Both the position numbers and the translations under genes were made by a program. DNA of 64,000 nt from a bacterium (GTDB taxonomy: Bacteria; Hydrothermota; DG-26; JAUXAN01), in contig JAUXAN010000004.1 of assembly GCA_030619885.1 (NCBI GenBank), forward strand, positions 12,575-76,574, in the 5' to 3' direction. Below the pieces are notes generated by a model, which worked only from the letters and a program-made list of their open reading frames with translations, was not told where the DNA came from and did not search any database. This document shows, in pieces, positions 15,721 through 55,212 of the stretch. Position 1 is the stretch's first letter. Every line of letters begins with the position of its first letter.

Positions 15721-15738
15721 CCCCTACGGGTCGTATGA
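15721..15738 (+). repeat. 18-bp unit 'A' (CCCMTACGGGTCGTATGA) inserted in a CTCTGTG...CTGTGG 9-mer repeat
   Basis: ctctgtgacct[cccctacgggtcgtatga]ctgtggtt. Confidence 0.6.
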
Positions 15739-15773
15739 CTGTGGTTTCTTTCATACTATTTTTGACATTACCT

Positions 15774-17534
15774 CTAATCGCATGCAAGTGTTTCGCTAAG
15801 ATGAGGAAGACGTTTTCTGATATCCTTTTTCATATGTTCCCTTATTTCTACTACCGTATTTAGATAAAACACTTTTTTCACAATCTCTTTTGCCTCTTTC
15901 ATACTCAAAGATCTTATTATATCTTTGGTTTGTAATAGCATTGAAGGACTGGTAGAGAGTTCATCTACTCCAAGTCCTATGAGGACAGGCACAGCAAGTG
16001 GATCACTTGCCATCTCCCCGCATACACCTACCCATATATTATTTTTATGTGCTTCATCTATAACCATTCTTATCAACCTCAATACTGCAGGATGTAAATG
16101 GTCGTATAGATTTGCAACCAGTTTATTTCCTCTATCCACAGCGAGTGTATATTGAGTCAGATCATTAGAACCGATACTGAAAAAATCTACCTCCTTTGCC
16201 AGAACTGGTGCAAGGATAGCGGCAGAAGGGATTTCGACCATCACCCCAACTTCGATACCCTCATCAAAACTTGTGCCTCTTTTCCGAAGATCTTGTTTTA
16301 CAGACTCTAAAATCTCTTTTGCCATTTTAACCTCTTCCACCGTAGATATCATTGGAAACATAATTTTAACATTCCTTTTTGAAGTTGTTCTGAGAATTGC
16401 TTTGAGTTGTGTCTTAAACTGGTCTTTTTTGTCAAGGGAAGATCTGATTGCTCTCCATCCTAAAAACGGATTAGATTCTTCTATTTTTTCCCCAGGGTAG
16501 AGTTTGTCACCACCGAGGTCAACAGTTCTTATAATTACAGGTTTAGGGTAGATACTATCTACTACATTTTTATAAAAATTGAACTGTTCATCCTCACTGG
16601 GTTCACCATCTTTGATCAAAAATATGAATTCTGTTCTGAAAAGTCCTATCCCTTCAGCACCGTGTGATTTCACGGATTTAATCTCTTCTGTGAATTCGAT
16701 GTTTGCTGAAAGTTCAATAGTATGACCATCAACCGTTGTAGTTGGCAAGTCTTTCAAGGCACAGAGTTGGCTAACAAGTTGCTCATACCTTATCTTTTCC
16801 GCCTCGTATGTACGGAGGGTTGACTCATCTGGATTGACAACTACAATCCCCTTTCTCCCATCGATGATTACGGTATCCCCATCTTCCACAGTTGTGGTCA
16901 AATTTTCAACTCCGACCACTGCAGGAATCTCGAGTGCCCTCGCCATTATTGATGTATGGGAAGTCTTGCCGCCTAAATCTGTTGCAAACCCGAGTAGATT
17001 ATCCTTCCTCATTTCCGCTGTATCGGATGGGGTAAGGCGGTGAGCTATTATGATTACTCTCTCACTCAATTCAGGAAGAGACGATGGATGTCCTGCAAGG
17101 TTTTTTAACAGCCTGCTCCTCACATCTTTAACATCTATGATTCTTTCTCTCAAGTAGGGATTTTCGATCTTCTCAAGGGTTCTCAGAAACTTTTCGGTGG
17201 TGAGTTGAAAAGAAGATTCTGCGCTTAGTTTTTTCCTCTTTATTATATCTTTTGTCTCTTCTATTATCCTGTCCTCTAGCAATAGAATTTGGGCATCTAA
17301 AAATCTCGCATGTTCATTTCCAACTTCCTGAGATAGTTTCTTTTTAATCTCTTCCACTTCCATTCTCGTGCGTTCGCACGCCTGTTCAAATCTTTCAATT
17401 TCAGTGGCCACTTCTTTGGTGTGCAAGAGTTTGTGTGTTATCGGATATTCGGCACTGATGAAAAAGAGCGCTTCACCAACTGTAATACCAGGTGAAGCAG
17501 GAATTCCCCTTAAAAAGATATTCTCACTCTTCAT
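15774..17534 (-). CDS. ptsI: Phosphoenolpyruvate-protein phosphotransferase (PTS enzyme I)
   Basis: GIPASPG, GGKTSHTSIMAR (phospho-His), GIGLFRTEF, NPFLGWRAIR, SIGSNDLTQY. Confidence 0.97.
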   Translation of the reverse strand: MKSENIFLRGIPASPGITVGEALFFISAEYPITHKLLHTKEVATEIERFEQACERTRMEVEEIKKKLSQEVGNEHARFLDAQILLLEDRIIEETKDIIKRKKLSAESSFQLTTEKFLRTLEKIENPYLRERIIDVKDVRSRLLKNLAGHPSSLPELSERVIIIAHRLTPSDTAEMRKDNLLGFATDLGGKTSHTSIMARALEIPAVVGVENLTTTVEDGDTVIIDGRKGIVVVNPDESTLRTYEAEKIRYEQLVSQLCALKDLPTTTVDGHTIELSANIEFTEEIKSVKSHGAEGIGLFRTEFIFLIKDGEPSEDEQFNFYKNVVDSIYPKPVIIRTVDLGGDKLYPGEKIEESNPFLGWRAIRSSLDKKDQFKTQLKAILRTTSKRNVKIMFPMISTVEEVKMAKEILESVKQDLRKRGTSFDEGIEVGVMVEIPSAAILAPVLAKEVDFFSIGSNDLTQYTLAVDRGNKLVANLYDHLHPAVLRLIRMVIDEAHKNNIWVGVCGEMASDPLAVPVLIGLGVDELSTSPSMLLQTKDIIRSLSMKEAKEIVKKVFYLNTVVEIREHMKKDIRKRLPHLSETLACD

Positions 17535-17790
17535 AGAATTTATCCTGTATCAATTTCTCCAATGCAGTAGCAGCCTCTCGTTCGTCCTCTCCTTCTGTTC
17601 TTATAGTTACTTCAGAACCTGGCTCACACGCCAATATCATAATATCCATTATACTCTTCCCATTCACTTCCATCCCGTCCTTTACGACAACTACATCGGA
17701 CTTGAACTTTGAGGCAGTCTGGACAAAGAGTGAAGCAGGACGTGCGTGAATGCCGAGTTTGTTCACTATCTTCGCTGTCACTTCAACCAT
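17524..17790 (-). CDS. ptsH: Phosphocarrier protein HPr
   Basis: GIHARPAS (His15 motif), NGKSIM (Ser46 motif). Confidence 0.97.
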   Translation of the reverse strand: MVEVTAKIVNKLGIHARPASLFVQTASKFKSDVVVVKDGMEVNGKSIMDIMILACEPGSEVTIRTEGEDEREAATALEKLIQDKFYEE

Positions 17791-17915: not shown

Positions 17916-17953
17916 CCCATACGGGTCCATACGGATCCGTATGGATCGTATGA
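17916..17953 (+). repeat. Nested repeat: 20-bp palindrome 'B' inserted in 18-bp unit 'A'
   Basis: cccatacgggt[ccatacggatccgtatggat]cgtatga. Confidence 0.7.
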
Positions 17954-23171: not shown

Positions 23172-23191
23172 TCCATACGGATCCGTATGGA
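23172..23191. repeat. Perfect 20-bp palindrome 'B' TCCATACGGATCCGTATGGA
   Basis: read directly; identical copy at 17926-17945. Confidence 0.75.
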
Positions 23192-23272
23192 CGGATCTGC
23201 GACCTGCGGAAAATTTATACTTCCTTATAGATCAAGAAAAAAACTACAGTCATACCCTACGGATAATAATCT

Positions 23273-24295: not shown

Positions 24296-24321
24296 AATAT
24301 ATTACTCTTTCTGAAGATTAT

Positions 24322-24490
24322 TTGACAGGATTAACAGGATTTTTATTCAATAGGACGTAGATTTCCGCCTATATGGGTCGTACGACAGATAACCGCAGAT
24401 TTAGTAGGGAACAGGCATGCCTGTTCCCTACATTTTCATAATATTTAATCCTGTTCATCCTGTCAAATGTTCAATCCTGTCTATCCTGTC
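24322..24490. repeat. Composite intergenic repeat: GACAGGATT/ATCCTGTC inverted 9-mer arms enclosing a CGCAGAT tract, unit 'A' (24368-24385) and a REP hairpin
   Basis: gacaggattaacaggat ... atcctgttcatcctgtc; gatttccg[cctatatgggtcgtacga]cagataaccgcagattt. Confidence 0.65.
24404..24431. repeat. Perfect 28-bp REP-like palindrome GTAGGGAACAGGCATGCCTGTTCCCTAC
   Basis: read directly; identical copy inside hdrA at 46573-46600. Confidence 0.8.
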
Positions 24491-26974: not shown

Positions 26975-27011
26975 TCCATACGGATCCCATACGGGTCTAC
27001 GACCGTATGGA
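26975..27011 (+). repeat. Nested repeat: 17-bp unit 'A' variant inserted at the centre of palindrome 'B'
   Basis: tccatacggat[cccatacgggtctacga]ccgtatgga. Confidence 0.7.
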
Positions 27012-27196
27012 CTGACACCGAGTCTTATAGTTCTTTGATGGGGTCAAGAAAAAAGTGTGGAGTACTTATACTTTTATAAGGAAAATCGTCTTAAAAATAA
27101 GATTGCACTCTGTAAATACGTAAATATGGGAAGGTGAATATTGAGGGCGCTGAAAAGGTGGATTTGTCAGTTTTTAAATAATACATTTTAATTTTT

Positions 27197-28123
27197 TTAG
27201 ATTAGGAAAAAATCTCTTATCAGGTCTTTCCATTCCTTTTCATCAATTTTTCGGAGTGTGCGTATAAGAGTGACATAACAACCTACTGAAACCCCGAGAT
27301 CACTCTCAATTCTGTGTGATAATCTATTTACTTCCTCCATAAGCCAATCCTTGGCTTTGTTTCCTTTCAAAAGCCCCTCCAAATCAACTTCAATATTAAA
27401 TGACTTTAATTCAAGGACCCACCCTTTCCCATAAGGGTCGGCATTTAATAAAGAACTGTCCTTGGAAAGCTCCTTGTTCATCTTCTTCACTGTACCATCG
27501 ATTGGAGAAAGTAGTTGAGCATTTCCCATCTTGCTCCTGACTTCCCAGCCAATTTCTCCTCGCTTCACTTCTTCTTTATGAACAAACTCTATCCCTTTTA
27601 TCTTCCCTAACAACCGTTGAGCAAAGTCATCCAATCCTATCCTCACAGTGTCTTCGTTTATTCTTCTAACCCAAGTGTGTTTCTTGTAAAAGTAGAGAGA
27701 ACCCGAAATTAAGAAACCATTCACTTTTATCCGGTTTACTTTTGTCATTTGAGCCAAAACTTTTGGATGCCCATAAATAGCATCTTGCATCATTTGGTCA
27801 TACTCACAGGAACCGCATTGATAGTTATTGGGGCAGAGTTTATAAGATACCTCTCCAACCAACATATATCTACACTTTCGTTCCAAAGCTGGCAGATTTC
27901 TCAACCGAGTAATAATATTAAACATCTCTGGTGTTTCCGCATATTTACCATTCACATCCATCAGAGATTGATTAAATTGGCACTTGGCACAATTGTAATT
28001 GAGAGTGCAAAGGCGATAAGAGATCACACCCAGCTTTACCCATATACATAGGCGTTCTTTACCAGGAAGCTCTTTCATTGTCTCCTTCATTGCTTTTATA
28101 TCTTCCTCTTTTGCAACAGTCAT
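27197..28123 (-). CDS. GcvH-like protein with two N-terminal Cys-rich repeats; lipoyl-Lys position not conserved
   Basis: 2x C-x12-C-x5-C-x2-C, then HTWV...VRIGLDDFAQRLLG...LSPIDG...NADPYGKGW. Confidence 0.8.
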   Translation of the reverse strand: MTVAKEEDIKAMKETMKELPGKERLCIWVKLGVISYRLCTLNYNCAKCQFNQSLMDVNGKYAETPEMFNIITRLRNLPALERKCRYMLVGEVSYKLCPNNYQCGSCEYDQMMQDAIYGHPKVLAQMTKVNRIKVNGFLISGSLYFYKKHTWVRRINEDTVRIGLDDFAQRLLGKIKGIEFVHKEEVKRGEIGWEVRSKMGNAQLLSPIDGTVKKMNKELSKDSSLLNADPYGKGWVLELKSFNIEVDLEGLLKGNKAKDWLMEEVNRLSHRIESDLGVSVGCYVTLIRTLRKIDEKEWKDLIRDFFLI

Positions 28124-28256
28124 TTTTTACTCACCTCCTTTGATTATTATTCATCTTCTTTCGCAACACTTCGGTACTGAAAACACTTAACAAAATCATC
28201 GCCTAATAAGAAAATAGCGTCTCCACAAAACATCCTTCTTACGATACTATGTAATG

Positions 28257-29200
28257 TCACTTTTTCCCCTGTCCAAATTCAAAGGTATCGATCGCATTTT
28301 TGACCACTGAAGCAGAGCGATCGAATGCTTCTTTCTCCTGTAAGGTAAGTTCGAGTTCGATGACTTTTTCTATTCCTTTGACTCCCAATTGTACTGGAAC
28401 ACCGAGACAGATATCTTTGTGTCCATACTCACTGTTTATATATGCAGGGCAGCATATAATCCTGTGGTCATTTCTGACTATAGCCTCAACCATCTCTGCG
28501 ACAGAGGCTGCAGGGGCACAGGATGCACTTCCGGTTTTCAAGTCCGCAACGATTTCTGCGCCTGCATTTCTCGTCCTCTCTATCAATTTATCTATCTTTT
28601 CTTTTGGGAGAAGTTCTGTTATAGGGATACCCTCTACCCTTGCATATCTCGGCAGAATGACCATATAGTCATGATGCCCTCCGAGAACAATTGCCGTAGT
28701 ATTGGCTGTAGAAACATTCAACTCCTCGGCGATGAATTCGCGTAGACGTGTAGAATCGAGGACACCAGCTACTCCCATAACTTTCGGGTTTGAAACCACT
28801 TGTCTTCAGCGTATAATAAGTAAGTGAATCAACAGGTTCGGTAAGAATTATGATAATCGAATTGGGTGCATTAGTGACTATTTCTTTGACGATTGAGCCT
28901 ATCACTTTAACATTTAGTTCGAGCAGGTCAAGGCGCAACATCCCTGGTCTTCTCATCTTTCCTGCCGCTATGGCCACAATTTTAGAACCTTTCGTATCTT
29001 TGTAATCATTCGAACCCTCAATAACTATCTATGTCATAACCCCTTATAGGTGCTGCTTCCATAAGGTCCAATGCCTTCCCCCTCGCTTTCCCCTTCACAT
29101 TATCAATCAACATCACATTGGCGAGTTTCTTCTCTGCTATATAGAAGGCTGTATCTGTTCCAACATTCCCTGCCCCTATTAAACTTACTTTCTCCATCAT
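28257..29200 (-). pseudogene. mdh: Malate dehydrogenase (LDH-like MDH) broken by two frameshifts
   Basis: three track ORFs join up: IGAGNVG; AGKMRRPGMLRLDLL; GVLDSTR, GGHHD, LKTGSA; ATAG duplication near 29025 and ~2-nt deletion near 28785. Confidence 0.85.
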
Positions 29201-29262
29201 CCACCTCCTGAGTTCTTTTTTATCTCTTCTATTGCAACCATCTTACCTCTCCCACACCAAAC

Positions 29263-32200
29263 TTACGATACTAAGCATGCTTTGACCATTTCAGAGATTT
29301 GTTTTGATTTAAATCCGAGTTGTTGCATTGCTCCTGATGGACAGGCACCCACACAACTCCCACAACCTTTACATAATGCTTTGTTGACCTGTGAAACTCT
29401 TTTCCTATCTTTTATAACAATCTCTAAAGCACCATAAGCACATACACTCTCACATACTCCACAACCTGAACAAATGTCTTCATTTACACTCGCAACAATG
29501 GCTTCTGCCTCGTACTTATCTTTTGAGATAATGGTACAAGCCCTTGAAGCTGCAGCGCAGGCTTGTGAAATTGTTTCATCGATAGTCTTTGGTGAGTGTG
29601 CCATTCCTGCTACGAATATTCCTTCTGTGGCAAAATCCACAGGCCGCAGCTTCACATGTGCTTCAAGGAAGAAGTTGTCGCTCCCTAAAGGCACTTTAAG
29701 TAATTTGGCAATCTCTTCATTACCGTGCTCTGGATGGATGCCTGCACTCAGGACGAGGAGATCCGCATCAATAATTAGCTGCTCCTTGAGAATTGGGTCA
29801 AGAAGGGATACTTTAATTGAACCATCTTGGACTATAAGCTCAGGTTTTTGATTCTCATCATAGCGGATGAAAGTAACCCCTCTGTCACGTGCTTCCCGAT
29901 AATAAATTTCACGCGTTCCGTAAGTCCTGATATCACGATATAAGATAAATATGTTAACTTGAGGATTGAGTTCAAGCAACTTGAGTGAATTTTTTATTGC
30001 CTGAGTGCAACATACCCTACTACAATAAGGATGTTCATTATCCCGTGAACCCACACACTGAATCATCACCACAGATTGGTAATTGTTGATTGGTGATTGG
30101 TGATTAGAAAGGAGTTCTTCCAGTTCGTGTTGTGTTATTACCTGGGTGTGCTTGTCATATAAATATTCATTGGGCTTGTATTCACGGGCTCCTGTAGCTA
30201 CAATTACAATACCGTGCTCTAATTCGTTATTCGTTATTCGTGATTCGTGATTCGTAGTGATACTGGTTTTGTAGTTTCCAATGTAGCCCTCGATGTTCTC
30301 AATACTTGTTCCTTTGTAAACTTTGATTCGTGGATGATTTTCTACCGCATCAATTAATGAGTCCAGGTATTTTTGAACATTCTCACCTTTGATTGTATAG
30401 TGCAGATTTCTCAGGTTTCCGCCAAGTTCAGATTCTTTCTCAACAAGAAACACTTCAAATCCTTGATTGGCAATGGATAAAGCAGAAACCACCCCAGCAA
30501 GTCCACCACCAATAATTAATCCCTTTTGTATCACATCAAGTTCTATTGTAGGCAGCGGTTCTAATAGTTTTACCTTGGCAACTGCCATTCTTACTAAATC
30601 TTTTGCCTTTCTGGTAGCTTCTTCTGGTTCATTCATATGAACCCAGGAGCATTGGTCTCTAATGTTTGCCATCTCAAAGAGATGTGGATTTAGACCTGCT
30701 TCCCTTATCGTTTCCTGGAACAGAGGCTCGTGGGTTCTTGGTGTACAGGAGGCAACAATTACTCGGTTAAGGTTATGCTCTTTTATTTTCTCCACAATTT
30801 TTCTCTGTGTATCTTGTGAGCAGGTAAACAGGTTTTCCTCTGCATATACGACATTGGGCAGAGTTTTTGCATACTCGACTACCAATGGCACATCTACATA
30901 AGCACCTATGTTAATACCACATCTACAGATAAAGACACCAATTCTTGGTGGTTTTCCTGTAACATCAATCTCCTCTGGGTATTCCTTCCTGGTTATCAAA
31001 GTATTTCTTGCAACTGCAAGTAGCGAAGCAACCTCGGATGCTGCACCTGATGCCTGAGTTACTGTCTCGGGTATGTCCTTGGGTCCCTGAAATACACCTG
31101 AGACAAATATACCCGGTCTTGAAGTCTGCGTGGGATGAAATTCATCAGTTTCACAGAAACCGTATTCATTCAGGTCAATACCTATTCTTTTACTCAACTC
31201 CATTGCTTCTTCTGATGGGACAAGTCCTACAGAAAGAACTACAAGATGAAATTCTTCTTGCTTAAGTTCTCCTTCTTCGGTTTCATACTTTAGATAAAGG
31301 TTATGGGTTTCTGGGTCTTCTTCTATAGATGAGATTCTTGCCCGTATATATCTCACTCCATATTCACTTTTTGATCTTTCATAGTATTTATCGAAATCTT
31401 TGCCATAAGCTCTCATATCCATAAAGAATATTGTGGGATCAACTTCTGGTGAGTGCTCTTTTGTAATTATTGCCTCTTTTGTAGCATACATACAACATAC
31501 TGATGAGCAATACGGCTTGCCTTTTCTATTTTCTCTTGAGCCAACACATTGGATCCAGGCGATCCTTTTCGGTGGCTTCTTATCCGAAGGTCTCAGTGTA
31601 TGTCCTTCATATGGACCTGCTGCTGATAGAATGCGCTCAAATTGCAAAGATGTGATAACATTTGAAAAGCGTTTGTATCCATATTCGCCTTTAATTTCAG
31701 GCGAGAATATTTGTGAGCCAAGCGATAGAAGAACTGCTCCTACTTCAATTTCCATGTCTTCTTCTACCATATCATGCAAGATTGCATCTGCTTCGCAATT
31801 CTTGACGCATTGGAGACATTCAGAACATACTCCACAATTAAGACATCTTTCTGCTTCTTTAATTGCTGTCTCTTTACTTTCATAGCCTAATTCAACCTTT
31901 TCCCAATCTTTGCGCCTTACATCGGGTGGCCGTTTTGGTAAATCAATCCTTTTCTCTTTCTTGACTTCCTTCTCTGGGAGTTCTGCTACCTTTACCTCTT
32001 TTTTTTCTCTATCAACCTTTATGTCTATTCCTTGGAGATACCTATCTATAGAGATAGCCGCCTCATGAGCCTGTCCTACTGCTTCAACTACTGAAGCAGG
32101 ACCCTTTACAATATCACCACCTGCAAAGACCCACGGAATATTTGTCTGAAGAGTAATTTCATCAACTTTGAATGTCTTCCATGAAGTGGTCTCCAGTTTT

Positions 32201-33711: not shown

Positions 33712-33713
33712 GG

Positions 33714-34631: not shown

Positions 34632-34638
34632 ATTAAAT

Positions 34639-36419: not shown

Positions 36420-36442
36420 AATACCTCCTTTCCATTTACCTC

Positions 36443-37492: not shown

Positions 37493-37503
37493 TTCTCCCC
37501 CTT

Positions 37504-38562
37504 TCACTTTATTGCCTTCCAGATAAGGTCACTTATATTTCTCACTGTAATACTTCCATTACCACTTTCCGAGGCTGATGCAGCAGCTTTTTTAAGCACC
37601 TGTTCACAGGTTGGACACGGAGTTACAAGCATAGAGACTCCGATATCTATCGCCTGATGGATTCTTGTTTTGCCTAACTCATCTGAGAGTTCAATATCTG
37701 ACATAAGAATTCCACCTCCACCACCACAACATTGAGATTCTTTCTTGTTTCTTTCCATTTCCACAATCTCAACACCAATCTTTTTTAGAATCTCGCGTGG
37801 CTCCTCAATTATATTCATAACACGGGAAAGGTCGCATGGGTCATGATAAGTAGCCTTTATACCAAGATTTGCCGTAGGGAGATGCTCCATGATGGTCTGT
37901 GTCATATGCGTAACCTTTTTACCATATCCTTCATGCAAGAAAGCGGCACAAGTGGGACAAAGAGCCATAATTTCTTTATAGGGGAAAATCTCAAGGAACT
38001 TCTCTTTCCATTGGGCAAGTTCTTTTCTAAACCCAAGTGCATACAGTGGGAATCCACAACATATTTCTTCCTTGATTAACGGCTTTACACCGAGTTTCTC
38101 AAGGATTCTTATGTAGAGTTTTGTCTGATTGGGTCTGGCAAGATACTGGCATCCTATAAATACAGGCATTTCACCTTCCTGAATAGGTACTTTCACTTCT
38201 TCGTCTCCAAAGATATTACCCGTTCTCTTAACATTTTCTACTATAGTCTTATGTGTATCATAGGCGAAACCAGATTTAACAAGGTCTGCTCTTGCAGCAG
38301 AGATGACTCCTGGGATATCAACGTTGGCTGAACATCGTTCAACACAATCCCTGCAATAGGTACACTGAAACATACTATCTGCAATACGCTGGGAAGGCTT
38401 AAGTTCACCCGTGAGTAATCCATAAGAAAGGACGAGTTTTCCTCTGGCAGTATCAGATTCCCAACCAAGTTGTTTAAAAACAGGACAGCCTTCAAAACAA
38501 TAAGCACATCTTATGCATATACTTAACTCAGTTTCCCATTCCTTTAAATATTTGGTTTCCAT
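37504..38562 (-). CDS. Fe-S oxidoreductase with 2x[4Fe-4S] and two CCG domains (GlpC/HdrD-like)
   Basis: CIRCAYCFEGCP, CTYCRDCVERC, CCGFP, YHDPCDLSR, CCGGGGG, CPTC. Confidence 0.85.
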   Translation of the reverse strand: METKYLKEWETELSICIRCAYCFEGCPVFKQLGWESDTARGKLVLSYGLLTGELKPSQRIADSMFQCTYCRDCVERCSANVDIPGVISAARADLVKSGFAYDTHKTIVENVKRTGNIFGDEEVKVPIQEGEMPVFIGCQYLARPNQTKLYIRILEKLGVKPLIKEEICCGFPLYALGFRKELAQWKEKFLEIFPYKEIMALCPTCAAFLHEGYGKKVTHMTQTIMEHLPTANLGIKATYHDPCDLSRVMNIIEEPREILKKIGVEIVEMERNKKESQCCGGGGGILMSDIELSDELGKTRIHQAIDIGVSMLVTPCPTCEQVLKKAAASASESGNGSITVRNISDLIWKAIK

Positions 38563-38573
38563 TTTTCCTCCAA

Positions 38574-38607
38574 GATTAAGAATTAAGCATTAAGGATTAA
38601 GAATTAG
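38574..38607. repeat. Heptamer tandem tract (NATTAAG)x5
   Basis: gattaag aattaag cattaag gattaag aattag. Confidence 0.7.
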
Positions 38608-38611
38608 ATAA

Positions 38612-39400
38612 CTATATATACTGTTGTATCTTTTTTAACAGATGTTCAGGCTTTATAGGCTTAGTAATGAACTCATCCACTTTGTGCGTATCTGCCATAG
38701 TACGGGCAAAATTTTGCTTTCTAAATTGCTTGTCAAGTGCTGTTACCATAAGAATGGGTATATTGTATGTCTGAGCATCTGTTTTCAATTCACGAGATAC
38801 CGTAAAACCATCTTTGTCGGGAAGTATAGCATCCATCACAATAAGATCAGGAGACATTGCCTTTACCATTCTAATTCCGCCTTTTGCAGTATCTGTAGTT
38901 TGCACTTCATACCCGTTTGATTCCAATACCTGTCGCATTGAACGTACGAAATCCCAATCGCTATCAATAATAAGGACTTTCTTCTTCTTTGTCGGTTCAG
39001 AAACAGTGAATTTTCTGCGAGTAATCAATCCATAGACCCTGGCAAGCAACTCCTTGGGTTCAATAGGCTTCTCTGCATAGTCGTCTGCTTTGTGATGAAG
39101 AGCAATCTTCTGTGCATATTTATCCTTAGCAGTTTCAGCACTGACAGAAGTTAAGACAAGAATGGGTATATCGAAAAAGTTAGTTCTTTCCTTGAACTCA
39201 CTACAGAGTGAAAACCCATCCTGCCCAGGAAGCATTATATCCAGAATAATTAGGTCGGGTTTTTCCTTTTTAAAACTCTGTCTTGCTTCTCTGCTGTCAG
39301 ATGCTGTAACTACTTCATATCCCTTACTTTTCAATATCTTAGTTGTGGCTTTGCAGAAATCGGCATCATCGTCTACAAGTAAAATCTTTGCTCTTTCCAT
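38612..39400 (-). CDS. Tandem receiver (REC-REC) protein with no output domain
   Basis: LLVDDD...ILDIMLPG...EKP and LIIDSD...VMDAILPD...TKP. Confidence 0.88.
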   Translation of the reverse strand: MERAKILLVDDDADFCKATTKILKSKGYEVVTASDSREARQSFKKEKPDLIILDIMLPGQDGFSLCSEFKERTNFFDIPILVLTSVSAETAKDKYAQKIALHHKADDYAEKPIEPKELLARVYGLITRRKFTVSEPTKKKKVLIIDSDWDFVRSMRQVLESNGYEVQTTDTAKGGIRMVKAMSPDLIVMDAILPDKDGFTVSRELKTDAQTYNIPILMVTALDKQFRKQNFARTMADTHKVDEFITKPIKPEHLLKKIQQYI

Positions 39401-39474
39401 TTCTTACCTCCTGTTTTAGCCACGGAATACACAGATTTTTCCAAGTTCTTAAAATATCAGTGTTAATCTCTATG

Positions 39475-40602
39475 TTAATCCGTGTAATCTGTGGCTTCAT
39501 TTCTAAACACCTCTTTGGGTAGAAGCACTGTAAAGGTGCTTCCTTTTTCAGTTTCACTTGTCACTCTGATAGTGCCAGAGTGTGCATCTACTATCTTCTT
39601 TACAATTGATAAGCCCAGACCTGTACCATCAATTCCTTGTGTTTTCTTATTCTTGATTTGATAAAATTGCTCAAAGATGAAAGGCAACTCCTCTTTTGGA
39701 ATCCCTATCCCTGTATCAGAAATATCCACCGCTACATACCCATCTTCTGCTTTTGCCTTTACTGTGATACTCCCTCCGTTTTTATTATACCTTATCCCAT
39801 TGTCCAGCAGGTTTAAGAACGCCTGTTCCAGAGTTTCCTTATTACCAAGAATCATTGGTAAATTCTCAGGGATATCCGTTTTCAAGGTAATATTTTTTTG
39901 TTTCGCCAATGTCTGCATCAAATCTGAAGTCTTAGTGATAATCTCGGTTAAACTTATCGGCTTTAATTTATTTACAATCTTGTCAGCATCTATTTTAGAT
40001 AGGTCGAGCCAATCCTTGATTAATCTCAAAAGTTCATCAATGCGAGTTTTTGACCGCTCCAGCATTTTCCTTTGTTCTTCCGTAACTTCTCCCGCCAACC
40101 CTTCCAGAATTACCTCGAAATATTCCTGGACAGCAACAAGTGGCGTTCTAAGTTGATGCGACACCATACTGATGAAATTTTCTCTCATCTTATCCTTCTC
40201 TTGTCGCAGACGATTGGATTCGATAATCAATCTCCTTCTCTCGAGGGCTCTTTTTGTGATTAGTCTGAGTTCATCAGGTGTAAATGGTTTGGGTAAAAAA
40301 TCGTATGCACCATTTTTCATTGATTCCACTGCTGAGTCTATCGTCCCATAACCTGTTATCACCACAGAAATAATATTTGGATCAATCGTTTTAATCTCTT
40401 CAAGAACTTCCATACCACTCATCCCTGGCATTTTGAGGTCAACAAGTACAAGGTCTGGATTTAGTTCTTTTACCTTTTGCAAGCCAGTGGCCCCATCTCT
40501 CGCAATATCTACTCTATAACCGTCTTTAGCATATACCTTACAACATGAGTCACACATAAATTCTTCATCATCAATTACCAGTATAGTAACAAGTTTTGCC
40601 AT
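39475..40602 (-). CDS. Receiver-histidine kinase (REC-HisKA-HATPase)
   Basis: VIDDE...DLKMPG; SHQLRTPL, NLLDNGIRYN, DTGIGIP, GTGLGLSIVK; ATG at 40602 preferred. Confidence 0.92.
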   Translation of the reverse strand: MAKLVTILVIDDEEFMCDSCCKVYAKDGYRVDIARDGATGLQKVKELNPDLVLVDLKMPGMSGMEVLEEIKTIDPNIISVVITGYGTIDSAVESMKNGAYDFLPKPFTPDELRLITKRALERRRLIIESNRLRQEKDKMRENFISMVSHQLRTPLVAVQEYFEVILEGLAGEVTEEQRKMLERSKTRIDELLRLIKDWLDLSKIDADKIVNKLKPISLTEIITKTSDLMQTLAKQKNITLKTDIPENLPMILGNKETLEQAFLNLLDNGIRYNKNGGSITVKAKAEDGYVAVDISDTGIGIPKEELPFIFEQFYQIKNKKTQGIDGTGLGLSIVKKIVDAHSGTIRVTSETEKGSTFTVLLPKEVFRNEATDYTD

Positions 40603-40738
40603 TTTTACACCTTTACTCAAATCCTTCAATTAGACACAGATTAACACAGATATTCGTTGATTTTAAACCTCTATTGAATTTAAGAAATGTTCTATTTTTC
40701 ATAATCTGTGGCATCTGGGTAACTCGATGTTTTTATTT

Positions 40739-41908
40739 CTAAACAGCCTCCGATTTGGAGTATATCCTCTCCAGAGGATTTTCTTCATCAATAATTTTAC
40801 TCAGTCTTTCTTCTCCTCTCTTCCTTTTTCTTTCCGCAAATGCTTCGATTAGTGATAGCAGTCTTGATTTTTCAGCTTTACTCTTCCCGATAGTTTTTTC
40901 GACCTTTTTCTCAAGGTAGCCCTGGCGTAATGCTTCAGTATATATTCTCTTTCCCTGAATAGTTCTTATCAAAACCGTAGTGTATACGTCTGGAGAACCA
41001 AGTCCACCCACTGAAATATCAGCGTAATTATTAGCAAAGTCTTCACAGGCTAAACACGCCGGTCTTGCTATTTCTTCGATCTCTTCCATGGGAATGTGCA
41101 CGGTTATGCCGGAATTCTTAGTAAGAATGAAATCCTCCTTAACATTTAATTTCACAATATCTTTCAAATTTATCTGATGTTTTTTGGTAAACTTTTTCTT
41201 CATAAGGTCGTCAAGAGCAAAACTCTGCATGCAAAATAAACCAATAGTAAATGTAATTACATCTGCTGGTAAGATCTTCAATATTTGCATTTTTCTGATG
41301 GCTTCAATTTGACACGGTGTTCCTACTAGAGCTAATCTGAGAAAAGATTTTGGGGCGTATTCTCTAATTATTGGTATCGTAGGAACGAATGTTGTATATT
41401 CAGCACCCATTTCTTGAAGATGGGAAGACTCTGAAAATTGAGAGCCAGCAGCTTGCATAAGTTCGCTGCGAGCAGTAGCTACTATCGGCTTACGGCTAAA
41501 TAAACCCACCCTTTTAGAAACAACTGCTCCATCAATAAGGTTGTTTTCCAACATATATAAAAGAAGTGAAGTTACTACACCACCATCAGTGCAGACTTTC
41601 AAAATTTCCTCATCTGTTGTCCTTGCTGAAAAAATGTCCTGGTAACGTCCTATCGGGGGGCGCCATCCAAATTCCTCTCTCACCTCTTCTTTAAGGATAG
41701 AGGTTTGGGGGCATATAAGGTAACATATTCCGCACTCCAGGCATTTTTCTTTATCAGCATATCTTGGAAAGTTATCTTCTCCTATTTCTAACGCTCCGAT
41801 TCTATCTGCTGAACAGAAGGATACACATCCTCCGCATCTGTTACAGAGCCCTTTTTCTATCACTTCTTGCACAAGGTTATCGAAACTCGTCTTTTCTTTT
41901 AATTTCAT
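40739..41908 (-). CDS. Coenzyme F420 hydrogenase/dehydrogenase beta-subunit-like (FrhB/FdhB) Fe-S flavoprotein
   Basis: CNRCGGC..FC / CLECGIC..ICP, DGGVVTSLL, VGTPCQI, IGLFC, CLACEDF...ADISVGG; GGAGG RBS before ATG at 41908. Confidence 0.85.
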   Translation of the reverse strand: MKLKEKTSFDNLVQEVIEKGLCNRCGGCVSFCSADRIGALEIGEDNFPRYADKEKCLECGICYLICPQTSILKEEVREEFGWRPPIGRYQDIFSARTTDEEILKVCTDGGVVTSLLLYMLENNLIDGAVVSKRVGLFSRKPIVATARSELMQAAGSQFSESSHLQEMGAEYTTFVPTIPIIREYAPKSFLRLALVGTPCQIEAIRKMQILKILPADVITFTIGLFCMQSFALDDLMKKKFTKKHQINLKDIVKLNVKEDFILTKNSGITVHIPMEEIEEIARPACLACEDFANNYADISVGGLGSPDVYTTVLIRTIQGKRIYTEALRQGYLEKKVEKTIGKSKAEKSRLLSLIEAFAERKRKRGEERLSKIIDEENPLERIYSKSEAV

Positions 41909-41981
41909 CTGTTTATCCTCCATGGCCCAAGACAGTATCTCCTCGCAGTGATAGCGGCTTTGATACCTGCCTTTGACTATT

Positions 41982-42350
41982 CTACATATCTGTTGTATTA
42001 AGCATTTGATTGTCAATGTAACACACGAAGTTATTCTGCTTTAGTTCTTCCACCAATTTTCTGGTCTTCTCTTTTGAGTACCATGAGAGTCTGACTGGGA
42101 GATTCTTCAAATCCTTGCCAAGTTCCCTCTCAATTTCCCATACTGTCGGCTCTTTACCATCAAGAAGAAGTGCAGAATAACAGTTGGTTGTCTCTCTGAT
42201 TTTGAAAATTATAACTTTTGTGTCATCTTTTATCTCCATTTTTTCCTTATTAGCTTTTATTTCAGCGAAGATACGTAAAGAAGGGGGCAGGTCCTGTATC
42301 TCTGAAAAGGCAGCTAAATCTGCCGTATATGTATGTGAAAAGTTCTCCAT
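41982..42350 (-). CDS. Hypothetical protein, paralogue of 47328-47693, directly after mvhD
   Basis: 122 aa, AGAGGTG RBS; shares TADL.AF.E.QDLPPSL...DDTK...FKIR with its paralogue. Confidence 0.8.
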   Translation of the reverse strand: MENFSHTYTADLAAFSEIQDLPPSLRIFAEIKANKEKMEIKDDTKVIIFKIRETTNCYSALLLDGKEPTVWEIERELGKDLKNLPVRLSWYSKEKTRKLVEELKQNNFVCYIDNQMLNTTDM

Positions 42351-42352
42351 TT

Positions 42353-42778
42353 TTACACCTCTCCATACGGATATTGAGACTGAGGCCCAAGTTTTGTGAT
42401 TTCATCAATGAAATTATTTATAGTTTGCTGAAACTTTGTAGCCTCACTCGCTGAGATCCATTCTAACCTTAATCTTTGTGGATTTATACCAAGTTGTGCA
42501 ATCATTTGTTTGAGAAGGAGATAGCGTCTTCTCGTCTTATAATTGCCGTTAATGTAATGACAATCTCCCGGGTGGCAGCCCGCTATCATAACTCCATCTG
42601 CCCCTTTAGTAAACGCATTAAGCACAAATTCTGGGTCAACTCTGCCAGAACACATCGTCCGAATTACCCTAAAATAAGGCTTCATCTGCAATCTTGATAC
42701 TCCAGCAAGGTCTGCTCCCGCATAAGAACACCAATTGCAACAAAAGACTATAATTTTAGGTTTAAAATCCTTGTTCAT
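42353..42778 (-). CDS. mvhD: Methyl-viologen-reducing hydrogenase delta subunit ([2Fe-2S])
   Basis: FCCNWCSYAGADLAG, MCSGRVDP, GCHPGDCHY, WISASE. Confidence 0.95.
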   Translation of the reverse strand: MNKDFKPKIIVFCCNWCSYAGADLAGVSRLQMKPYFRVIRTMCSGRVDPEFVLNAFTKGADGVMIAGCHPGDCHYINGNYKTRRRYLLLKQMIAQLGINPQRLRLEWISASEATKFQQTINNFIDEITKLGPQSQYPYGEV

Positions 42779-43314
42779 TTTAGTGCTGCATCTGTCATTG
42801 CAAAAAGTTGCTGGGATTTAAATCCGAGTTGCTGCATTGCTCCTGATGGGCAAGATGATACACAACTCCCACAACCCTTGCAAAGTGCTTCGTTAACCTG
42901 AGAAATTCTCTTGCCTTCTTTTAAAACGATTTCTGGTGCACCATAAGCACAAACACTCTCACATACTCCACAGCCTGAACAAATGTCTTCATTTACACTC
43001 GCAATAATGGCTTCTGCTTCATACTTATCTTTTGAGATAATTGTACACGCCCTTGCAGCAGCAGCTTTAGCCTGAGAAATACTTTCGTCAATAGTCTTTG
43101 GCGAATGTGCCAGACCTGCCAGGAAAACACCTTCTGTGGCAAAATCGACCGGTCTTAACTTAACATGTGCCTCTAAGAAAAATTTATTCTCATTCAAAGG
43201 AACCTTTAGCATTTGCGATATCTGGGGAGCATCAGTTCGAGGAACCATTGCAGGTGAGAGCACAACAAGATCTGGATTTATTACAAGATGGCGGTTTAGA
43301 ATTGGGTCTTTCAC
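42775..43314 (-). CDS. hdrA: C-terminal fragment of the frameshifted HdrL-type hdrA (continues 43323-47327)
   Basis: DPIL...DLVVLS...FFLEAHVKLRPVDF...CSGCGVCESVC; collinear with the C-terminus of 29263-33711. Confidence 0.85.
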   Translation of the reverse strand: MKDPILNRHLVINPDLVVLSPAMVPRTDAPQISQMLKVPLNENKFFLEAHVKLRPVDFATEGVFLAGLAHSPKTIDESISQAKAAAARACTIISKDKYEAEAIIASVNEDICSGCGVCESVCAYGAPEIVLKEGKRISQVNEALCKGCGSCVSSCPSGAMQQLGFKSQQLFAMTDAALK

Positions 43315-46300: not shown

Positions 46301-47327
46301 TCGCATCGTATCCCTCTTGTTTAAGGCGACCAATGCTATCTACACAAGTATTTGTTCTAATTTCCACCCCAGCTTTTTCGATTGCCTTGATTTCGTAATC
46401 AAGAATATCTTTCGGTAGTCTATATTCTGGTATTCCCACAGCAAGCATCCCACCTGGAACTGGTAGTTCTTCAAAAACGGTAACTCGGTAGCCCATTTTT
46501 GCTAAGAAATAGCCTGCTGTTAATCCAGAGGGTCCAGAACCTATAATAGCAACTTTCTCTTTTTTGGGTTCTGTAGGGAACAGGCATGCCTGTTCCCTAC
46601 CTTCGAATTCATCTTTATGTTGTATAACATAATCGGCAATAAATCTTTTCAGGTCTTTTATAGCAACAGGGCTATCATACTCTCCCCTTCTGCAATTTTG
46701 TTCACATGGATGAGTGCATATTCTTCCACAAACCGAAGGAAAGGGATTATTTTCTCTTATTAAATCATAGGCTTCCTTATATTTCTTTTCTTTTATGAGA
46801 GCAATATAACCCTGGACATGTACTCCTGCGGGACATGCTTGCTGACAGGGTGGCCTTTGTTTTTTGTCTATAGCAAAAGCATTAGGATAGGCTTGTGCGA
46901 AAGGTCTATATACTGCTTTTCGCTCTACGAGTCCCTCATTAAATTCAGAAACTGCTTCAATTGGACATACCTTTTCGCATTCACCACAGCCTGTGCACTT
47001 ATCGAGGTCGATAAATCTCGGGTGTTTAAAGACTCTTACATTAAAGTTTCCCGGTTTACCACTTACTTCTTCTATTTCAGAACAAGTTAAAAGTTCAATA
47101 TTGGGATGTCTTCCGCATTCAACTAATTTAGGCGCCATAATACACATTGCACAGTCGTTGGTTGGAAAAGTTTTATCAAGTTGTGCCATAGTTCCACCAA
47201 TAGCAGGAGAGTTTTCAAGAAGGTAAACCTTATATCCTGAATTTGCTAAATCGAGTGATGCCTGGATTCCTGCTATCCCGCCACCAATGATAAGGACGCT
47301 GCCAATTTTATGATTATTCTTTTCCAT
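43323..47327 (-). CDS. hdrA: Second HdrL-type HdrA, N-terminal 1334 aa, ending at a repeat-associated frameshift
   Basis: same domain order as 29263-33711; homology stops after FIRYEKDEKPIVS and a repeat-derived tail follows. Confidence 0.88.
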   Translation of the reverse strand: MEKNNHKIGSVLIIGGGIAGIQASLDLANSGYKVYLLENSPAIGGTMAQLDKTFPTNDCAMCIMAPKLVECGRHPNIELLTCSEIEEVSGKPGNFNVRVFKHPRFIDLDKCTGCGECEKVCPIEAVSEFNEGLVERKAVYRPFAQAYPNAFAIDKKQRPPCQQACPAGVHVQGYIALIKEKKYKEAYDLIRENNPFPSVCGRICTHPCEQNCRRGEYDSPVAIKDLKRFIADYVIQHKDEFEGREQACLFPTEPKKEKVAIIGSGPSGLTAGYFLAKMGYRVTVFEELPVPGGMLAVGIPEYRLPKDILDYEIKAIEKAGVEIRTNTCVDSIGRLKQEGYDAIYIATGAHIGVKPDIPGCDGIGVVDAVDFLRSVNLGKKVELGKKVAVVGGGNTAIDAARTAKRMGCEVTLLYRRTKVEMPAEDREVENALEEGVDTIFLVNPSEIVCENGRVKCIKCTKMKLGELDASGRRRPVPIEGSDFLIERDALIYAITQKPNISFISGNKNIEVTRWGTIKANKKTFETDESGIFAGGDVESGPATVIEAIATGRKTAISIDRYIRGEDLKEGRELEIDELPPKQFPEFVERKERQIILTLAVEERIKNFEEVDLGFTEEMAVEEAKRCLECGLCSECMECVRVCEADAVSHSMVGEHLNIDVGSIILAPGLDKFDPSMKYEFGYKKYPNVVTSIQFERILAPSGPYQGHILRPSDSKEPKRIAWIQCVGSRDEESNSTYCSSVCCMYAIKEAIITQEHVKDIESSIFFMDIRAYGKDFDKYYERAEQEYGVRFIRSRVGKIEEVEDSNNLLVYYTTEDGKQLADEFDLVVLSVGLKPSQKIADLSDKLGIRLNAHEFFRTSVFSPLQTTLPGIFVCGPASGPKDIPETVMEASGAVASAAELLSDVRGTEVIEKVYPPERDVNDEPPRIGVFVCHCGINIAGVVDVPQVVAYAKTLLDVVNVEDNLFTCAQDTIERMKQVIEEHNLNRVVVASCSPRTHEPLFQETLRESGLNSYLFEMANIRDQCSWVHMNEPEEATRKSKELVRMAVTKARLLESLPKIELPVIQKALVIGGGLAGMVSAFSIARQGFEVTLVEREQELGGNLRNLYYTTQGDDVQEYLNSLIEKVENHPRIKVYKGANIENIEGYIGNYKTSITTNHESRITNNELEHGIVIVSTGAEESKPKEYLYGEDARVITQLELGKRLVEAEKILEIKGKKPVSQIQKLKSVVMIQCVGSRDDEHPYCSRVCCQEAVKNALKLEELNPEVSIYILHRDVRTYGFFEKYYQKARDDGIIFIRYEKDEKPIVSRLSDFGELSRAVIGDRLSSKTKNQKPI
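46573..46600. repeat. 28-bp REP-like palindrome inside the hdrA reading frame
   Basis: identical to 24404-24431; translated as GREQACLFPT. Confidence 0.8.
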
Positions 47328-52786: not shown

Positions 52787-52978
52787 TTAAAAATCCTCAA
52801 CCACAGATGAACACAGATTTTCATCTCAAGATCCGTATGGACAAGATATTGAAAAATAGAATGTCAGAACATCAGCAAATTAGAATGAGATTTCAGACAT
52901 CAGAGTACCAAATATATGTGCTTCTGACTTCTGATATCTGACTTCTCCATCTGGTAATCTGATATCCGCTTATCTGTG

Positions 52979-54952
52979 TTAATCTCGTGTAATCTTGTGG
53001 TTTGTGCTTTCATAATCTGCTGGCAATCTTATTGTAAAAGTAGACCCTTTCCCAACTTCACTATTTACATTTATCTCGCCATTATGCTTCTTGATGATTC
53101 CATAACTTATTGCCAAGCCAAGCCCTGTCCCATGACCTGTCTTTTTATTTGAAAAAAATGGTTCAAACAGTTTCCCCACGTTCTCTTCAGAAATGCCGCA
53201 ACCTGTATCGGTAAATTTTGTCTCAACAAATTTTTCGTCAGATGAAGTTTCAATGGTCAATTCACCCTGCCCATCCATCGCCTCAGCTCCATTCAGAATA
53301 ATATTCATAAATACCTGCTGAATTTGAGCCTTGTCCAGCATAACCGGAGGAAGGGGTTGAGAAATTTTTTTGGTTATTTTAATATTCTGAAAAATCGCCT
53401 GGTTTTCAATAAGTGATAGAACCTCATCAACTATTTTATTTATATCTGAGACTTTTATCTCAGGCTCAGTTTGACGAGCGAAATCGAGAAGTCCTTTTAC
53501 TATTTCCTTACACCGGGTTGCTTGATTAACTATTTTCTCCAAATTTTCTCTACGAGGATCTTTTTCTTCTAAATCCTCAAGCAGAAGGTGGCTGTATATC
53601 AAAATGCCCCCAAGCGGATTATTTATTTCATGAGCAACACCTGCTGCAAGTTGTCCTATTATAGCCAACCTCTCTGACTTCATTATTTCCTGCTGTGCGT
53701 ATTCTTTCAGTCTTTCGTCTCTCTTCTTTATTGAATCTGCCATATAGTTAAAGGTCCTTCCTAACTCACCAATCTCGTCTTTGGTTCCATATTCAACCCT
53801 CTGCTCCAAGTCTCCCTTTGCTAATTTATTAGAGGCAGAGACAAGAGAGCGAATAGGTTTTACTATGCTATTCCCAAGGATGTATGAAATAACAAAAGCA
53901 ATAGCCATTCCAGCAAGTGTTATCCCCAAAAATGTCCATAAAGTCTGTCTTTTCATATCCACAAATTTCTCTTCAAGGATTCCAACATATAGAATACCGA
54001 TGACTTCATCTTTGATATTTCTTATCGGTTCATAGGCTGTTATATACCAATCGTTGACTACAAATGCTCTATCGACCCAGGGTTTCCCTTTTGCCAATAC
54101 TTGATTGTTTACTTCTTTGGATACCCGTGTCCCAATGGCTCTATTTCCATCCTTTGTCTTTACATTAGTTGAGATACGCAAATCACCTTGAAAAATGGTG
54201 GCAGTGCCAATGTCTTTTCCCTTGTATGTTTCTCCCCTATATACTATATCCTTTATCTTATCAACAATTTCATAGTTTCTGTTGAGCAGAATTCCGCCAT
54301 ATAATACACCGATTAAGTTACCATTGCGATCAAGGACAGGCGCTGCTGCTTTTATCATCATTCCTGAGATCTCCTCTTTTTCAGGCCTAAGTTTTGCTTT
54401 AGGGGTCGGAATAAACTTTATATGAGCTTGTTCAGCAAGGTCTTCTCCTTCTTTCACTAATTCATCTCTTACAACTATCTGAGTTGATGCTACTATTACT
54501 TTTTGGAGTGCAGTATCCGTGATACTGCGTGCATTGACGCGGTCAATGCACGCCATAACCAGTTCATCATCCACTTGGTGGTCTCCAAAAACTGCAGGAT
54601 TTCGCGCTCTAACAAGAACTATACCATTCCTGTCAGTGAGAGTGAGTATATCCAGTGATTCTCTTTCTCTTACTTTTCTTAGTTCTGGTTTCAGGTTCTC
54701 TATATTATTTTTCAAGATTGCGTCTTTCAAAAAGAACCTCAAAGCAGTCAAACGTGTACAAGTCCTGACTTCTCTGATTCTCTCTCTGTATATCTCTCTC
54801 GCTGAATTAAGGTCCAATTTTACCTTCTCCTGAGCTTGCTTCACTATTCTATCGCCAATTAAGTGTACCCCTACTATAGTGACTGTAATGCCAGCAATGG
54901 CAATTACTGATAGAAAGCTCAGGATCAACTTCAATCTTAGTGAACTCTTCAT
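52979..54952 (-). CDS. Sensor histidine kinase (periplasmic Cache-like domain, HAMP, HisKA, HATPase)
   Basis: two TM helices, ATIFQGDLRISTNV...RAIGT, AHEINNPL, NIILNGAEAM, GTGLGLAISYGII. Confidence 0.94.
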   Translation of the reverse strand: MKSSLRLKLILSFLSVIAIAGITVTIVGVHLIGDRIVKQAQEKVKLDLNSAREIYRERIREVRTCTRLTALRFFLKDAILKNNIENLKPELRKVRERESLDILTLTDRNGIVLVRARNPAVFGDHQVDDELVMACIDRVNARSITDTALQKVIVASTQIVVRDELVKEGEDLAEQAHIKFIPTPKAKLRPEKEEISGMMIKAAAPVLDRNGNLIGVLYGGILLNRNYEIVDKIKDIVYRGETYKGKDIGTATIFQGDLRISTNVKTKDGNRAIGTRVSKEVNNQVLAKGKPWVDRAFVVNDWYITAYEPIRNIKDEVIGILYVGILEEKFVDMKRQTLWTFLGITLAGMAIAFVISYILGNSIVKPIRSLVSASNKLAKGDLEQRVEYGTKDEIGELGRTFNYMADSIKKRDERLKEYAQQEIMKSERLAIIGQLAAGVAHEINNPLGGILIYSHLLLEDLEEKDPRRENLEKIVNQATRCKEIVKGLLDFARQTEPEIKVSDINKIVDEVLSLIENQAIFQNIKITKKISQPLPPVMLDKAQIQQVFMNIILNGAEAMDGQGELTIETSSDEKFVETKFTDTGCGISEENVGKLFEPFFSNKKTGHGTGLGLAISYGIIKKHNGEINVNSEVGKGSTFTIRLPADYESTNHKITRD

Positions 54953-55090
54953 AAGTATTCAGAAGAAATTGCGAACTAAGGTAGTCCTCTCATTTTAAAA
55001 CTCATCTACAGTAAATATAATGAAAAAATTTTGTCAAGGAGAAAAATGCAAATGCAGAGAACGCAGAGTTCACAGAGAAAAGCACAGAAG

Positions 55091-55127
55091 TCCCTACGGA
55101 TTCCATACGGGGATTAGACCGTATGGG
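55091..55127 (+). repeat. Nested repeat: 17-bp 'A'-like unit at the centre of a 'B'-like palindrome, inside CACAGA 9-mer arms
   Basis: tccctacggat[tccatacggggattaga]ccgtatggg; half-B at 55162-55175. Confidence 0.6.
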
Positions 55128-55212
55128 CAAGTTTTAGGGATTCCCTGTTCTGTGTTTATCCGTCCATACGGATCCTGAGATGTCAGCATCCGTGGTACTC
55201 CATGTTTTTCTC

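Follow-up and report, generated by a model that had tools for sequence, protein, structure and literature searches.

Strain-variable 17-20-nt micro-elements that nest in one another in a Hydrothermota genome, and a tRNA-borne GIY-YIG nuclease as their candidate driver

The question raised by this locus is whether very short repeats that lie inside one another are mobile and, if so, what moves them. In the 64,000-nt stretch analysed here (the window; positions 12,575 to 76,574 of contig JAUXAN010000004.1, assembly GCA_030619885.1), a preliminary description had noted two tiny units, A of 18 nt and the 20-nt palindrome B, inserted into each other and into other repeats, and every feature that it listed was recovered at its position (Table 1). 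Its reading of these copies as products of an active, site-preferring micro-insertion process and not of slippage is borne out by indels between strains, by paralogous empty sites and by insertion points that are reused by different units. The overall explanation that we arrive at is one of active micro-elements resembling the small dispersed repeats (SDRs) of Nostocaceae, with a GIY-YIG nuclease cassette as their likely driver; taken as a whole it has, in our judgement, an even chance of being right.

The preliminary description recognized just two units, and these proved to be members of a larger family. An unbiased indel screen, in which pairs of 11-mers adjacent at one place were sought 8-60 nt apart elsewhere and tandem duplications were removed, yielded insert lengths that peak at 17-20 nt, and a single family dominates those length classes. 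The family comprises at least seven two-module unit types of 17-20 nt: A (CCCATACGGGTCGTAYGA, 18 nt), U1 (CCCATACGGGTCTGYGA, 17 nt), U3 (TCCATACGGATCYTGAGA, 18 nt), U4 (TCCATACGGATGCTGTGCA, 19 nt), U5 (TCCATACGGATCCTGYGGA, 19 nt), B (TCCMTACGGATCCGTAKGGA, 20 nt) and an 18-nt type that bears no letter name here (TCCGCAGGATGCTGTGCA), with additional types besides. The two modules are about 9-10 nt each, and every module forms a mini-palindromic shell, for example TCC-ATAC-GGA, CCC-ATAC-GGG, TC-GTAT-GA, TC-TGC-GA or TGC-TGT-GCA. A and B fold as DNA hairpins (-3.9 and -6.3 kcal/mol) with GTAG/GTAT present internally; U3, U4 and U5 fold no better than shuffled sequences. With the unit types distinguished, the unit inside B at 26975-27011, earlier taken for the 18-bp A, is indeed a nested insertion and its insert is the 17-nt sibling U1. 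Among the copies described as half or partial, that at 23247 is a degenerate fragment, and the sequences at 52830 and 55162 turned out to be full-length copies of the 18-nt U3, which numbers 33-34 copies in the genome.

Evidence for movement comes from comparison of the genome that holds the window (G000; its contigs are given C-numbers, and compared contigs or loci L-numbers) with public assemblies that are about 96-99% identical to it; the nearest species representatives are two genomes of the same class, neither of them close. The lone A at 15721-15738 is matched by an exact 18-nt gap with identical flanks in L097, L098, L100, L101 and L102, five independent assemblies (JGI and Logan two each, ENA one), with a boundary ambiguity of at most 1 nt and without target duplication. 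Further strain alignments cover about 196 kb, and in them small palindromic units make up most of the indels that are at least 13 nt long. Clean unit indels of 17, 18, 18, 19 and 20 nt, corresponding to U1, the TCCGCAGGATGCTGTGCA unit, an A-type unit, U4 and B, run in both directions: present in G000 only are U1 (C48:3148), U4 (C19:3463), one 18-nt unit (C80:131869) and one unit of A type (C7:21046), and a B at C7:27214 is carried by the other strain only. Unit indel boundaries are ambiguous by 0-2 nt overall, and target-site duplications are absent. Other copies in the window are shared between strains, namely the lone B at 23172-23191 (also found in L094, L098 and L100), the U1-containing B at 26975-27011 (common to L098, one single-nucleotide polymorphism apart) and the A[B] composite at 17916-17953, which is kept in 5 of 5 strain contigs. 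Within the genome itself, the diverged A at 24368-24385 has a paralogue at C51:26919 with the same flanks and seven empty sites, and the U3 at 55163 has two paralogous empty sites (listed as C11:67737). The approximately 57 copies of A have very diverse flanks; the process is one of dispersal and not just of conversion between homologous hosts. We therefore state with high confidence that the units are gained and lost precisely, and are active at the strain level, in unrelated intergenic contexts.

The insertion points follow a preference. Before the TC... end of U3 and of reverse-complemented A and U1 (rcA, rcU1), G occupies position -1 in 76 of 85 copies and C occupies position -3 in 68 of 85; for U3 alone, G stands at -1 in 26 of 33 copies. 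Insertion at CNG^ (the caret marks the insertion point) frequently breaks the heptamer ATCTG^YG of decamer arrays and is also seen as CAG^ in tRNA-like stems. Variants of A and U1 enter directly 5' of CCGTATGG; this occurs in the middle of B and, at the corresponding position, in a GCAT^CCGTATGG host. This site has received at least four different inserts, empty copies of it coexist with the filled ones, and U1 or A variants occupy it in more than 20 copies other than the one at 26975-27011, whose filled B is found at the tip of a host hairpin, GGTCAG...CTGAC. U4 enters at TCCAT^ACGGA, B enters the centre of A or CCCG^TATGGG, and the centres of small palindromes are further favoured targets. 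The nesting of units in one another therefore follows from their preference for sites 5' of CCGTATGG and for palindrome centres. Composites spread as units: the A[B] composite occurs five times in the genome with the same junction, three paralogous A copies are without B, and the composite CCTGCCTACCGG[B]CAGGCAGG reaches about 35 copies in a second organism (G268-type contigs).

The inserts also show how the units are not made. Which A/C variant an insert carries does not depend on the target beside it, so no local template is copied; local templated synthesis off an adjacent complementary half-site was rejected on this ground, and the units are pre-formed, not copied from the target. The same mismatch between inserted variants and the adjacent complementary target speaks against an account that needs no dedicated enzyme, in which replication template-switching at hairpins, together with short-homology gene conversion between related repeat hosts, would generate the pattern. 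Such an account could draw on the fact that many hosts are repeats, so that filled donors with the same flanks exist (the U4 host is one case, and C44:1241 matches the flanks of window position 15721), on the length of the modules, which at about one helical turn resemble array units, and on the swapping of whole spacers between strains. We nevertheless consider it unlikely, given that identical units stand in many unrelated flanks, that the copy at 15721 is one base off its only same-flank paralogue, and that the same units are abundant in two distant lineages and essentially lacking in about 265 genomes of the phylum that share ordinary replication and repair.

The core CCATACGG is present 15 times in the window against 0.69 expected, a number that none of 100 shuffles reached, and the whole genome (2.46 Mb, 39.6% GC) has 397 copies against about 41 expected. 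When both variants, CC[AC]TACGG, are counted, the genome contains 516 half-sites grouped in 403 clusters. Only 21.7% of the 516 fall inside open reading frames (ORFs; minimum length 120 aa), which make up 85.7% of the genome, and the core sits almost only between genes; the core matches at 34968 and 35255 of the window are solitary 8-mers within coding sequence and look like chance. A dense unit array around any single gene, as a master locus would show, was not found in G000. The orientation of the units is unbiased with respect to transcription and an Rfam search with the units returned no family match, and on these two grounds a function at the RNA level was rejected. The wider proposal that the units are conserved binding sites or regulatory hairpins (operators, terminators or RNA elements), held in place by selection and not mobile, appears hardly credible to us: their precise presence and absence among nearly identical strains, the destruction of palindromes by nesting, the diversity of the flanking genes and the absence of the units from about 265 related genomes all count against it, as do the unbiased orientation and the lack of Rfam matches, even though the units are intergenic, often lie close to promoter-like TTGACA arrays and include in B a perfect palindrome of which the identical 20-mer is kept in two lineages.

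At window positions 42362-42379, the 3' end of a minus-strand ORF (42353-42778) contains a U3-like sequence, TCCATACGGATATTGAGA, with two mismatches, which may be an in-frame unit or a chance match.

To follow the family across genomes, 272 genomes of the phylum, G000 included, were surveyed for B with at most one mismatch. B was found 46 times in G000, 59 times in G268 and 52 times in G271; four other genomes have 1-3 copies, and 265 of the 272 have none. G268 and G271 are two species of one genus that belongs to another class than G000, and metagenome contigs identical to G268 contain B, U3, U4 and U5 in different hosts. Because identical 20-mers occur in lineages at about 45-60% protein identity and are absent elsewhere, horizontal spread of the system is argued. 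A phage vector was rejected after B was not found in IMG/VR and A gave two matches there. A cyanobacterium bearing SDRs was rejected as well, the best MtaB relatives being non-cyanobacterial, with no more than 52% identity; among those with a name, the best (42-44%) belong to Gemmatimonadota, Zixibacteria, Latescibacterota and TA06.

As to the enzyme, the preliminary description had suggested a REP/RAYT-like process or an unknown one. In the former, REP- or REPIN-like units would be moved as single-stranded DNA by a Y1 transposase (RAYT or IS200-type HUH) and placed 3' of a short target without duplication. The units do resemble the REP/REPIN-RAYT systems and the bacterial interspersed mosaic element (BIME) mosaics of Enterobacteria and Pseudomonas in being high-copy short extragenic palindromes that form motif mosaics, in lacking target duplications and in residing in a genome with HUH Y1 genes (PMC3116915, PMC3479197). 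Y1 transposases are plentiful, with 15 Y1_Tnp matches each in G000 and G268, and the lack of duplication, the precise excision and the CNG^ preference match IS200/IS605-style chemistry. IS200/IS605 elements insert 3' of a fixed tetra- or pentanucleotide, without duplication, and excise precisely; the units share the lack of duplication and the precise empty sites, and their target is a loose CNG^ preference or, for U4, TCCAT^ACGGA. Measured against the REP hairpin (imperfect, about 20-40 nt, with a conserved 5' GTAG-type tetranucleotide), A and B fold with GTAG/GTAT in internal position; U3-U5 fold no better than shuffled sequences and so are without the hairpin that a RAYT requires (PMC3479197). 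The units are moreover half the size of REPs, several of them are not hairpins, and they nest inside one another.

A RAYT flanked by its own REPs is missing for the units in G000, where none of the 15 Y1 genes has a family unit in its 250-nt flanks and GGGGAC-type inverted repeats are found instead. Among about 25 Y1 genes examined in four genomes of genus g110, half-sites immediately flank only one small RAYT, that of G268:C80 (L260), in the form of 1+3 copies of the hairpin CCTGCCTACCGG[B]CAGGCAGG. There, B may do no more than ride at the tip of a hairpin that belongs to the RAYT; this type of gene lacks a G000 homologue at E<=1e-8, reaches 28% identity at best in G271 and attains 54-56% in genomes free of B. 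An unusually similar RAYT pair linking G000 with G268 or G271 was not found either, the best pair sharing 53%. Gene flanks, phyletic pattern, cross-genome similarity and the flanks in g110 thus left one ambiguous association only, and RAYT was rejected as driver; movement of the units by a Y1 transposase is in our view quite improbable.

Concerning the Y1 genes in their own right, the 15 matches of G000 are located on C83, C67, C9, C37, C52, C48, C24 and other contigs, and some are fragments with stop codons. Several full-length ones are bracketed by short inverted repeats of their own that start with GGGGAC, and the 2.46-Mb genome probably houses several independent REP-RAYT pairs. In L260 (1300-2400), the G268 RAYT of 179 aa lies inside an array of repeats of about 120 bp, each with the decamer run GGAGTTAATCC and the hairpin CCTGCCTACCGG[B]CAGGCAGG.

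As previously noted, no cognate enzyme is encoded in the window; the candidate is found on another contig. At C57:14537-14779, G000 has an intact 81-aa GIY-YIG gene (PF01541, E=3.9e-19, positions 2-74 of 78) located in a tRNA-Pro(UGG) cassette with a partial tRNA duplication, made up of tRNA-Pro and broken copies. In the broken copies, the T-arm hairpin is swapped, exactly at its base, for TCCGTACGGA, the perfect-palindrome form of the family half-site, and in the same cassette an anticodon arm is swapped for GTCCGTATGGAC. Of the 271 other genomes, G271 (65%) and G268 (63%) encode the two closest homologues of this protein; they are the sole other unit-rich genomes of the 271, and the unit-poor congeners G269 and G270 have homologues of just 44-50%. 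The cassettes of G268 and G271 also lie in tRNA genes (Rfam tRNA match in L285; tRNA-Pro GGG read by eye), and their broken tRNA copy has a precise 19-nt U5-type insertion after CCAG^, to which G268 adds an 18-nt two-module insertion after GCAG^. A word-indexed database search with the 81-aa protein gave four matches. An ENA contig with a 59% homologue contains five broken tRNA copies in which the anticodon arm is replaced by TCCGTACGGA (Rfam tRNA match; tRNA-Gly by eye). Hence in four cassettes (G000, G268, G271 and the ENA contig) the broken tRNA copies carry family units or TCCGTACGGA. Next to a 57% homologue from Ferruginibacter, a similar arm swap involves a different palindrome, which points to a separate hairpin for every nuclease clade.

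Based on these cassettes, we propose that the 81-aa nuclease, as part of a selfish cassette in tRNA-Pro genes, could move the units in trans. Its part would be to cut stem-loop or CNG^ sites, and it would fall to repair or ligation by the host to install or remove a unit. The link is circumstantial, drawn as it is from sequence comparison, and we name the nuclease as likely driver with a confidence that falls slightly short of even. Several points weigh against it and against the wider explanation. Small GIY-YIG genes are common in unit-free genomes, and the steps in homologue identity are modest (65/63% vs 58/55%). Because G268 and G271 are congeners, roughly two lineages that count as independent, with an unplaced contig in addition, underlie the co-occurrence. 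The broken tRNA copies are rich in hairpins and free of constraint, and units could be mere passengers there, against a background of about 1.15 half-sites per kb of spacer in genomes already full of units. Since GIY-YIG enzymes only cut, installing a unit needs an extra second step, and since U3, U4 and U5 are without a hairpin of their own, a purely structure-directed model is incomplete. Finally, the filled allele at 15721 is seen in this assembly alone.

Further GIY-YIG genes were observed in similar surroundings. In a Ferruginibacter metagenome-assembled genome (JAXLUD010000007.1; L299, 800-1830), a tandem pair of 82-aa GIY-YIG genes is surrounded by tRNA-Pro-like copies in which the D-arm is replaced by CCCCGCCATTGGCGGGG, and this GC palindrome is also present in tRNA copies beside GIY-YIG genes of G265 and G268 (L279, L280). 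A second small GIY-YIG gene of G000, C36:37436-37639 (L278), stands immediately upstream of a complete RNase P RNA gene (Rfam RF00010, 230 bits, L278:1715-2104), with family units about 100 nt upstream of the locus. Among 80 metagenome loci a single GIY-YIG gene was found, and it is unlinked.

The SDRs of Nostocaceae (SDR4-6, especially SDR5) were reportedly described by Elhai and colleagues in 2008 in Genome Res 18:1484. SDR5, 21 nt in length, inserts between the third and the fourth base of HIP1. Like SDRs, the units are non-coding modules of some 20 nt that nest, are restricted to a narrow lineage and insert precisely into short repeats and into each other, with empty sites preserved. With 17-20 nt against 21-27 nt, they are of the same scale and outside the published range. 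The hosts of SDRs are HIP1 and heptamer repeats, those of the units decamer arrays, other units and tRNA-like stems; the families SDR1-8 belong to heterocystous cyanobacteria, another phylum, and their sequences are unrelated to the units, the SDRs having been compared by description. Unlike SDRs, the units are two-module, show strain-level activity and a cross-lineage distribution, and co-occur with a nuclease cassette. The units are in this sense a non-cyanobacterial counterpart of SDRs.

Other known systems are less close. Miniature inverted-repeat transposable elements have terminal inverted repeats, target-site duplications and lengths of about 50-500 bp, and the units are 17-20 nt long and produce no duplication. 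Free-standing GIY-YIG homing endonucleases form cassettes of their own, for example the Seg proteins of phage T4. The cassette described here is likewise a small selfish ORF in a conserved gene neighbourhood, in this case a tRNA gene with partial duplication, and its distribution is patchy and looks horizontal; it differs in that the protein of 81 aa is essentially the catalytic domain and in that tRNA arms are replaced by a signature mini-hairpin. Dispersal of a mini-hairpin family as hundreds of solo units is, to our knowledge, not a property of homing endonucleases. Fungal mitochondrial DNA contains mobile GC clusters and double-hairpin elements, which are organellar, with lengths of 30-80 nt. 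We know of no tRNA-cassette link described for them, and their sequences are unrelated to those of the units. The likeness is that of tiny palindromes entering spacers as well as one another, in genomes where homing endonucleases abound (compare PMC7218506). As a more tentative claim than the driver role itself, the 81-residue GIY-YIG protein, close to a bare catalytic domain, and the hairpin TCCGTACGGA of about 10 nt with its two-module derivatives may constitute a previously undescribed mobile system, which would home into tRNA genes, seed and remove hundreds of 17-20-nt units in trans at hairpin and CNG sites, and have moved horizontally between distant lineages.

Nostocaceae are the one family from which precisely transposing elements of about 20 nt have been described; SDRs are confined to it by published reports (PMC5861425), as modules of about 21 nt inserted precisely into HIP1, and their function and driver were still unknown as of 2026, the driver ever since 2008 (PMC4390886, PMC13756078). 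The present case, from an unrelated uncultured phylum, adds polymorphism of insertions between strains, a target preference put into numbers and a small, easily expressed candidate enzyme, and the mover of such elements therefore becomes directly testable. If the nuclease link were true, it would define a new class of mobile system and supply the missing mechanism for very small mobile elements of the SDR type. On the practical side, the units break metagenome assemblies (contig ends lie in units), remodel promoter-proximal spacers and are usable as strain markers.

Table 1. Family units and an adjoining palindrome in the 64,000-nt window.
Feature	Position	Strand	Sequence	Structure or context
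Lone A variant	15721-15738	+	CCCCTACGGGTCGTATGA	in array sequence ctctgtgacct^ctgtgg; this strain only
A[B] composite, 38 nt	17916-17953	+	CCCATACGGG-B-TCGTATGA	A = 17916-25 and 17946-53; B = 17926-45, at GGG^TCG
Lone B, perfect 20-nt palindrome	23172-23191	no strand	TCCATACGGATCCGTATGGA	
Degenerate family fragment	23249-23264	no strand	tcataccctacggata	more than 3 mismatches from every unit consensus
Diverged A	24368-24385	+	CCTATATGGGTCGTACGA	at CCG^CAG of CGCAGATnnC decamer array
28-bp REP-like palindrome	24404-24431	no strand	GTAGGGAACAGGCATGCCTGTTCCCTAC	separate repeat family adjoining unit A
B split by 17-nt U1	26975-27011	+		B = 26975-85 and 27003-11, break GGAT^CC
U1 insert	26986-27002		CCCATACGGGTCTACGA	inside B
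Complete 18-nt U3	52824-52841	-	TCCATACGGATCTTGAGA (reverse complement)	
B-like unit, split	55091-55127	+	TCCCTACGGAT...CCGTATGGG	17-nt variant insert TCCATACGGGGATTAGA at 55102-18
Complete 18-nt U3	55163-55180	+	TCCATACGGATCCTGAGA	after ...tatccg^

The 28-bp palindrome next to the diverged A has a second copy in the window at 46573-46600. It occurs in 16 exact copies, 7 of them inside long ORFs, and a copy at C5:19058 is present or absent between strains. The sequence GTAGGGAACCCGTACGGGTTCCCTAC is a sibling of this palindrome, with the same arms and a family-like centre. Nesting in palindrome centres is also shown by other repeat families: at C5:42124, in comparison with L167, a 30-nt GC-rich hairpin present in G000 only sits exactly in the middle of the abundant palindrome CCCGCACTTATGCA^TAAGTGCGGGG, and near this event, at C5:46294, the same comparison reveals a 43-nt hairpin indel.

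Strain comparison also revealed larger differences around the units. The spacer between the ArsP_2-like gene and feoB (window 24316-24455), which in this window contains unit A and the 28-bp palindrome, is swapped in L098 (JGI 3300028822, 98.4% identical) for the unrelated repeat-rich sequence L098:16260-16440, and spacers appear to be exchanged wholesale between strains. L098 aligns up to 27115 and resumes at 42817, so that about 15.7 kb of an Hdr-type gene run (window 27116-42816) is missing, with a weaker 82% match at window 29308-29661; this gap is either a true absence or the result of an assembly recombined between paralogous copies. The Logan contig L094 begins inside the A[B] composite, at window position 17928, and L099 begins at 17971, about 18 nt downstream of it; unit-bearing, repeat-rich spacers thus appear to fragment short-read assemblies of this species.

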